In this document: positions 3,549 through 3,611 of the stretch, in pieces
Layout of the letters: each line of letters starts with the position of its first letter
Position numbering within the stretch: position 1 is the first letter of the stretch
Source of the DNA: a virus
Reading direction: 5' to 3' (one strand)
Length of the DNA stretch: 20,418 nt
Virus genome (UHGV): UHGV-0101751
Notes under the pieces: generated by a model
Told to the model about the DNA's origin: nothing
What the model saw: the letters and a program-made list of their open reading frames with translations, nothing else
Database searches by the model: none
Position numbers and translations under genes: made by a program

Positions 3549-3611
3549 AGAGCCTGCTTCCGTATATATAAATACTAAGTGACTTATTAAATATATACGG
3601 AAGCAGGCTCT
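3549..3611. repeat. Perfect 21-bp inverted repeat with 21-nt AT-rich loop
   Basis: 3549-3569 (AGAGCCTGCTTCCGTATATAT) pairs base-for-base with 3591-3611. The loop contains the palindrome TAAGTGACTTA. No U-tract follows on either strand. Confidence 0.9.

Follow-up and report, generated by a model that had tools for sequence, protein, structure and literature searches.

Palindromic origins with an A/T-rich centre are known from herpes simplex virus (oriS and oriL). Among phages, the genomes of T7-like vibriophages contain highly similar dispersed palindromes, some of which resemble the T7 RNase III site (PMC11707656), and the PeSL cassettes of T4-like phages are composite terminator/promoter units that were proposed to serve gene-block exchange (PMC2839356, PMC4122927). 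We describe here a long hairpin upstream of the small terminase gene (terS) of an SSU5-like phage-plasmid, and we propose that it is one member of a three-copy hairpin family which marks operon boundaries and would act on the sense-strand transcript. SSU5-like phage-plasmids are common: pHCM2 of S. Typhi, pMT1 of Y. pestis and many plasmids of Klebsiella, E. coli and Enterobacter belong to them, and some carry resistance genes. To our knowledge, gene regulation in this group is essentially unstudied. A literature search for a description of the hairpin element found no paper, and an Rfam 15 scan of the whole window (the complete stretch of 20,418 nucleotides that was analysed, UHGV virus genome UHGV-0101751) gave 0 matches at the gathering score.

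The window and the hairpin upstream of terS

The window was assigned by megablast to the SSU5 group of phage-plasmids (Salmonella phage SSU5, E. coli pLF82/Cyrano, Klebsiella pJN2-26 and others) and is a deleted, IS26-bounded piece of such an element. The IS26 terminus was seen in perfect 55-nt inverted copies at both window ends (1-55 and 20364-20418), so the phage-plasmid fragment is IS26-flanked; the first 20.4 kb of the IMG/VR contig 3300023487_000135 (21,444 nt) correspond to the window. The alignment showed that SSU5 1-4255 equals window 3590-7845 and that the match then jumps to SSU5 28407, which means that about 24 kb (SSU5 4256-28406), holding all head and tail genes, are missing at window 7844/7845. 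A second deletion was seen near 2567 (about 2367-2567), where part of the ParB-like/ABC ATPase cluster is gone and the ORFs 2183-2611 and 2601-3251 are truncated. The deleted IS26-flanked element is probably unable to make virions. Gene identities were obtained from PHROG/Pfam scans of the window and gave the following layout:

Before the phrog_900 gene, + strand: truncated ParB-like gene and ABC-type ATPase fragment
3261-3527, + strand: 88-aa phrog_900 gene
3723-4364, + strand: TerS-like DNA-binding protein (terS)
4367-5623, + strand: TerL
5657-7231, + strand: portal
9562-10586, + strand: parA operon
10639-11406, - strand: GIY-YIG-like gene, convergent with the parA operon
11689-12414: phrog_2500 gene
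12475-13815: DnaB-like helicase

Two other intergenic structures were seen in the window. Between the parA operon and the convergent GIY-YIG-like gene, positions 10590-10624 form a strong terminator-like hairpin of 15 bp that has a T run, and an inverted repeat of 23 nt (17333-17355 / 17395-17417, 91%, 39-nt spacer) adjoins the start of the minus-strand 953-aa ORF 17482-20343.

The hairpin before terS, here called copy A, and the features around it are listed below:

3549-3611, + strand: inner hairpin of copy A, with arms 3549-3569 and 3591-3611 and a 21-nt A/T-rich apical region at 3570-3590
3526-3632, + strand: extended imperfect palindrome round copy A, from the fold of 3525-3640
3641-3682 (3641-3657 and 3670-3682), + strand: two terS-leader copies of the motif AGAAAACAAnTTGkTT
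3684-3703, + strand: small terS-leader hairpin, GGAGCGCaaggaTGCGCTCT then GAGTGTTTTA, 20 nt before the terS ATG
9514-9526 and 12443-12455: further sites of AGAAAACAAnTTGkTT, before parA and before the helicase gene, respectively

The initial annotation had reported a perfect 21-bp inverted repeat at 3549-3611 that lies beyond chance, and this was confirmed by direct reading: the arms AGAGCCTGCTTCCGTATATAT (3549-3569) and ATATATACGGAAGCAGGCTCT (3591-3611) are exact reverse complements over 21 bp, and they extend to 24 nt at 96% in a repeat search of the window. By our own arithmetic (20418 x 60 x 4^-21), the chance expectation of such arms is about 3e-7. The fold of copy A had an energy of -37.9 kcal/mol against -10.0 +/- 2.3 for shuffled sequences (z = -12.1, 0/200 shuffles). 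The A/T-rich spacer at 3570-3590 is partly symmetric and holds an inner TAAG-tga-CTTA pairing, so that the predicted stem consists of 21 continuous bp plus an apical stem and offers the dsRNA of at least 20 bp that is a feature of RNase III sites. Outside the inner hairpin, the outer arm GTCGGTCTGGG(AG) pairs with (CT)CCCCAGCCCGG(TTT), and the RNA fold of the whole 3525-3640 region reached -52.9 kcal/mol (z = -8.5, 0/200 shuffles). In relatives, the outer boxes GGTCTGGGAG / CTCCCAGACC are found again at copies A, C and D.

Copy A starts 21 nt past the stop of the phrog_900 gene (3527) and ends 111 nt ahead of the terS ATG (3723), and a stable + strand stem-loop shortly after a gene end is a feature of terminators. 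A U run directly 3' of the stem is absent, the downstream sequence being CTCTGAATA. All 39 unique copy A sequences were alike in this respect, and the view that copy A is not a canonical terminator therefore holds, because it never carries a U tract. No convincing sigma-70 promoter was found downstream of copy A. A candidate inside the palindrome (TTGAGA plus an A/T-rich -10) was rejected, as its -35-like hexamer varies among lineages, and a LexA box (CTGT-N8-ACAG) in the T-variant arms was rejected by inspection for its wrong spacing.

The small hairpin at 3684-3703 is maintained in relatives via G-C to A-U double changes and may act on the packaging operon as an attenuator or as a translational element. 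The motif AGAAAACAAnTTGkTT has a palindromic core, AAACAAnTTGTTT, with 3 exact sites against 0 expected, and its sites lie 20-41 nt upstream of the starts of the terS, parA and helicase genes. It overlaps the ACACCCAGAAAACAA box of the initial annotation.

A further repeated palindrome of 19 bp, ATAgGTAAGTACTTACcTA, was found at four sites against 0 expected by chance:

5620-5638: 19-bp palindrome
7134-7152: 19-bp palindrome, between the -35 and -10 of a predicted promoter (7128-7156)
11656-11674: 19-bp palindrome
17103-17121: 19-bp palindrome

Another of these sites is placed just after the -10 of a promoter at 11615-11643, before the replication operon. The 19-bp palindromes look like operators of a phage-plasmid repressor. 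A TAAGT/ACTTA core is common to the 19-bp palindrome and the apical part of the big hairpin.

A second copy and the three-copy family

A degenerate second copy at 11518-11573, sharing 26 bp with the first, had also been reported. It was recovered as a hairpin before the helicase operon (copy B), with these features:

11517-11571, + strand: copy B hairpin, a 17-bp stem with G.U pairs plus a 7-bp apical stem
11571-11576, + strand: U-rich tract TCTTTT, a terminator tail directly 3' of the copy B stem
11490-11597, + strand: extended palindrome round copy B, from the fold of 11485-11605
11615-11643, + strand: sigma-70-like promoter TTCCCA-17-TATGAT, between copy B and the gene at 11689

Positions 11528-11570 of copy B match 3565-3607 of copy A at 41 of 43 bases, the quoted 26-mer included, and the 14-mer TATACGGAAGCAGG is found, with up to 2 mismatches allowed, in each arm of each copy, which makes four occurrences where 0.08 would be expected. 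The left arm, which had been called decayed, pairs fully as + strand RNA. Its three differences are all G.U or U.G on the + strand, and together with the closing pair 11517-11571 they make up the four G.U pairs of the fold, which had -27.6 kcal/mol on the + strand against -18.6 on the - strand. The statement that the element lacks a U tract likewise fails for copy B, since TCTTTT follows the stem directly. The extended fold of 11485-11605 reached -43.9 kcal/mol (z = -7.1); in it TTCTGGGTGTCT pairs with AGACACCCACCAGAA, and the imperfect palindromes round copies A and B are each about 105 nt long. AGACACCCACCAGAA is the downstream box which had been placed within about 40 bp of both copies. Such a shared box is real, but its placement differs, at 25 nt after copy A and 9-10 nt after copy B, and at copy A it overlaps the other repeated motif, AGAAAACAAnTTGkTT.

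The sigma-70-like promoter lies 44 nt downstream of copy B in a block that is conserved at >0.9 in 47 relatives; promoter calls in the window as a whole were not above shuffles (15 vs 18.2). In the window, the gene next to copy B (10639-11406) is on the - strand; with no gene upstream that runs in the same direction as copy B, no obvious transcript is there for it to terminate. With 28 C and 7 G, the stretch after copy B (11574-11653) is strongly C-rich, reaches the 99.9th percentile of the window and resembles a rut site. In relatives, the 60-80 nt 3' of copies B and C are C-rich and G-poor, whereas the copy A tail has no such bias; across relatives, the 60 nt after copy B had a mean of 21.7 C vs 4.6 G.

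Related genomes carry three copies. SSU5 has copy A across the record junction (103259..21), copy B at 33458-33513 and copy C at 78304-78360, and Cyrano has them at 108342..17, 31159-31211 and 78084-78138. In SSU5, copy B precedes the phrog_2500/helicase/primase operon, and copy C, which is outside the window, stands after a Dam methylase gene and before a block that begins with a small ORF and extends past RNase H to the antirepressor. All three copies are intergenic and co-oriented with their flanking genes, and every copy is placed 21-27 nt past a stop codon and 111-118 nt ahead of the next start. A fourth position, before a RelE/ParE pair, was found in an E. albertii plasmid. The idea of a duplicated regulatory module before two operons is thus supported, and extends to a three-copy family conserved across SSU5-like phage-plasmids.

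The element region matched 798 PLSDB plasmids from Klebsiella, Escherichia, Enterobacter, Yersinia, Salmonella, Citrobacter and Cronobacter. The element was present in 260 of 5,426 complete E. coli genomes, with a median of 6 strand-places per genome having any, which we read as 3 sites matched on both strands. A host repeat of the REP/ERIC/MITE type was rejected, as 1406 of the 1410 E. coli places are plasmid-borne. Among species-representative genomes an exact pattern match was found in only 5 of 185,579, all on phage-plasmid-like contigs, and the copy A element was present in all 73 usable SSU5-like loci. The element is found only in SSU5-like elements of Enterobacterales, and because it is absent elsewhere it is a clean sequence marker for this group. 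The CCCAGA boxes, tested as iterons genome-wide, showed no clear enrichment outside the elements.

The position of copy A directly upstream of terS/terL had led to the proposal of a pac-type signal, that is, copy A would be the pac or cos site of the adjacent small terminase, with a virion end at the loop/right-arm junction. The SSU5 GenBank record fits this in one respect: joined end to start it equals the window exactly, and it was opened at 3589|3590, inside copy A, which is also the most perfect copy and the sole major one without a U tract. Against this, SSU5 and Cyrano have two more copies per genome with the same arms, so a terminase that used these arms as its target would divide the chromosome into three. 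The Cyrano record starts one base later than that of SSU5 (3590|3591), and we rejected this as an independent sign of a physical end: Cyrano is plasmid pLF82, re-annotated and compared with SSU5 (PMC9928086), and because of this joint re-annotation an alignment to SSU5 probably determined where it starts. No relevant paper came up in literature searches on SSU5 termini, cos or palindromes. Assembly breaks are common at palindromes and repeats, and the element, being both palindromic and repeated, may account for such breaks and for records that start at an arbitrary point, as the SSU5 reference may do. Outside the group, TerL has its closest relatives among T5-like and Jersey/T1-like phages, at an identity of only about 26%; these are not lambda- or HK97-type cos phages, which is a weak point against a cos site. 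A packaging site at copy A is very unlikely in our judgement.

The distant relative Pseudomonas phage nickie also bears on this question. It shares the SSU5 synteny (ParB/methylase - ABC - ABC - small gene - terS - terL - portal) and a homologous terS (34% identical), and a homologous element is absent from it; as an argument against a packaging site this is weak, since pac sites can diverge. Positions 2840-2965 of the nickie locus L290 were seen to hold a TTGACA-containing stretch and then an ordinary terminator-like hairpin, GGTGAGAGGACCGCCTCTCACC plus TATTTTT, before terS. This promoter-then-terminator layout suggests, from its sequence, a possible antitermination control of late genes in nickie. 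An unrelated hairpin with a T run at the same place also suggests that the position needs a transcript-level stop and not a particular sequence. A protelomerase target (telRL-like) was discarded as a candidate as well: no protelomerase is annotated in the SSU5 and Cyrano tables, and the relatives are circular plasmids.

Conservation, transcription and the proposed role

Conservation was analysed in 73-75 protein-anchored loci each for copies A and B, and copy C loci were found by pattern. The core across relatives is CCTGYTTCYGTATA ... TATACRGAAGCAGG, and the element length, or arm spacing, ranges over 51-57 nt because the A/T centre gains or loses bases. Arms and apical region had about 90-100% column identity across paralogues and lineages, against 30-60% in the flanks. 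The number of T in the 9 nt after the stem separated the copies in every lineage: 2-4 after copy A (39 unique sequences), 4-7 after copy B (47) and 4-6 after copy C (17). The U tract of copy B had a column identity of >0.9, with neighbouring columns as low as 0.3. Among 68 unique A/B sequences, the core-stem mismatches on the sense strand were 58 G.U against 7 A.C cells, and some copy C sequences had C.A mismatches on this strand. The G.U asymmetry, and the restriction of U tracts to the sense side, favour the sense strand.

Compensatory covariation, as a proof of RNA structure, was not significant: paired cells amounted to 89.8% vs 89.3% in shuffled alignments (74 of 500 reached this), and the covariation score was reached by 40 of 500. 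At the most variable pair we counted CG 17, UG 39, UA 8 and CA 4, with left and right states independent. With no covariation and with arms that vary independently, it is the conservation of each arm's sequence that preserves the palindrome, a pattern that, judged on the alignment, would fit a DNA-level site equally well. Identity between copies A and B was 0.900 within genomes vs 0.894 between genomes, so the paralogues are no more alike within a genome, concerted evolution was not seen, and gene conversion is no explanation for the conservation. Such strict conservation is more than a generic terminator requires, and the frozen arms and loop, without covariation, hint at a sequence-specific partner.

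This conservation is the main argument for a reading at the level of DNA, in which the palindrome, as duplex or cruciform, would be a protein site that co-controls the three lytic operons, or would be one of several lytic origins. In every copy and lineage both arms and the loop are strongly conserved, with neither covariation nor concerted evolution; the 35-nt centre, clamped by G+C-rich arms, consists almost entirely of A/T; inverted TCTGGG / CCCAGA boxes surround every copy, and the next start codon always follows at 111-118 nt. A stable DNA hairpin is predicted (-23.4 kcal/mol, z = -12.2), and the Cyrano annotation includes a T4-like recombination/replication set (UvsW, UvsY, gp32-like SSB, SbcCD-like, RuvC). 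But the arm-to-arm spacing differs by 6 bp, and the 51-57-nt range is harmless to a folded hairpin and awkward for one dimer on B-form DNA; the 58:7 mismatch asymmetry favours the sense strand, the U tracts after B and C are conserved on the sense side only, transcription falls to background across copy B in Cyrano, and the binding protein is putative. As to an origin, cumulative GC skew shows a monotonic rise across all three copies in both SSU5 and Cyrano; this test is weak because skew here follows transcription. For the origin-like element of the initial annotation we found no positive evidence and no GC-skew switch at any copy. We hold the DNA-level reading as a whole to be doubtful.

Expression in a relative was taken from the LF82/Cyrano RNA-seq table, which lists the expression of every Cyrano gene as gene-level counts (PMC9928086, supplementary file 2). 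Across copy B, expression fell from 50, 89 and 55 in the ParA/partition operon (CYRAN_28, CYRAN_29 and CYRAN_30) to 6.2 in CYRAN_31, where the floor for Cyrano is 5 and the median background 9.8, and under condition B6 the log2 values fell from 10.1-10.4 to 2.6 (PMC9928086). Across copy A, CYRAN_123 had log2 values of 5.5-6.6 against 3.7-5.6 for terS, a 2-4-fold drop near background, and the genes on both flanks of copy C were silent (PMC9928086). At the resolution of gene-level counts this fits a strong terminator at copy B and at most a leaky one at copy A, where the small drop could also have other causes.

We therefore favour, with a probability of about 0.5, sense-strand RNA hairpins that insulate the lytic operons, with B and C as intrinsic terminators and A as a leaky or processing variant. 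Copy A would front the packaging genes, copy B the helicase-primase replication genes and copy C the RNase H/antirepressor block. Copies B and C, each a hairpin with a U tract, would stop upstream plasmid-state transcription that runs into the lytic genes. For copy A we infer action at the RNA level by one or both of two routes: it may be a leaky terminator or attenuator, as the U tract is missing, and its long dsRNA may give a stable 3' end to the upstream message and be a plausible RNase III substrate. By either route, the packaging operon would be uncoupled from upstream transcription. Copy A is probably neither a packaging site nor an origin, but an ordinary regulatory feature.

What simple termination does not explain is the frozen arms and loop across paralogues and genera, and a putative recognition factor would explain them. 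In that case the hairpin, as RNA or extruded DNA, would be the recognition element for an SSU5-like factor that switches the packaging, replication and antirepressor operons together. Such a factor could act by regulated antitermination or by processing at the hairpin; alternatively, a phage nuclease (e.g. SbcCD-like) might cut the hairpin and give rise to recombination-dependent replication or packaging ends. We regard a dedicated factor as unlikely, yet if the conservation does reflect one, it would be a handle on the lysis-lysogeny switch of SSU5-like phage-plasmids.

The conservation might also be maintained by exchange, with the hairpin (plus promoter) cassette as a homology patch for swapping unrelated gene blocks. 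Copy B had 14 unrelated upstream contexts and a single downstream context in 75 loci, and the stretch over which the window is homologous to SSU5, Cyrano and Klebsiella relatives sets in at 11508-11518, the left arm. The window is moreover a mosaic: the copy A region is 97-99% identical to SSU5, and the copy B intergenic query matched the E. coli relative CMS-2020a at 92.4% vs SSU5 at 79.3%. As read from these contexts, copy B is the fixed right edge of a cargo region. However, copy A has one context on each side (73 loci) and is at least as conserved, and homogenisation within genomes was not seen. A linker of this kind would also be an evolutionary by-product that is compatible with termination, not an alternative molecular function, and we consider it quite unlikely as the explanation. 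Under the operon-boundary reading, the three boundary hairpins, the operator-like palindrome family and the third, leader motif together would give a testable map of lytic transcription units.

Comparison with known systems

Like lambda cos and P1 pac, copy A lies directly upstream of a small terminase gene and has partial two-fold symmetry, but the element occurs three times per genome and is missing from nickie despite its homologous terS. With origins of the oriS/oriL type it shares the A/T-rich centre, the inverted conserved boxes and several intergenic copies per genome; sense-strand U tracts and strand-biased mismatches would be unexpected in such origins, and an initiator for the element is only hypothetical.

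The PeSL cassettes are also repeated units of a small conserved stem-loop and a promoter, a partial likeness in layout, motif sequences aside, and copy B, as they do, edges a hyperplastic region with swapped unrelated genes. In contrast to PeSL, the element has about three copies and not dozens, copy A is at no variable junction, and the phage group is another one. The RNase III hairpins of T7-like phages are likewise several near-identical, long intercistronic hairpins with >20 bp of predicted dsRNA. The element is related to them neither in sequence nor through Rfam, its cleavage is hypothetical, and its stem is continuous, whereas T7 sites are usually interrupted by an internal loop where cleavage occurs.

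From the intrinsic terminators between prophage operons the element differs in its size and composition (a stem of 17-21 bp plus an apical stem, about 55 nt in all, half A/U), in a sequence that is conserved between three sites and across genera, and in the missing U tract of copy A. It resembles them in being a sense-strand stem-loop tens of nucleotides past a stop codon, in the U tracts of copies B and C, and in the expression of the lysogen, which falls to background across copy B.
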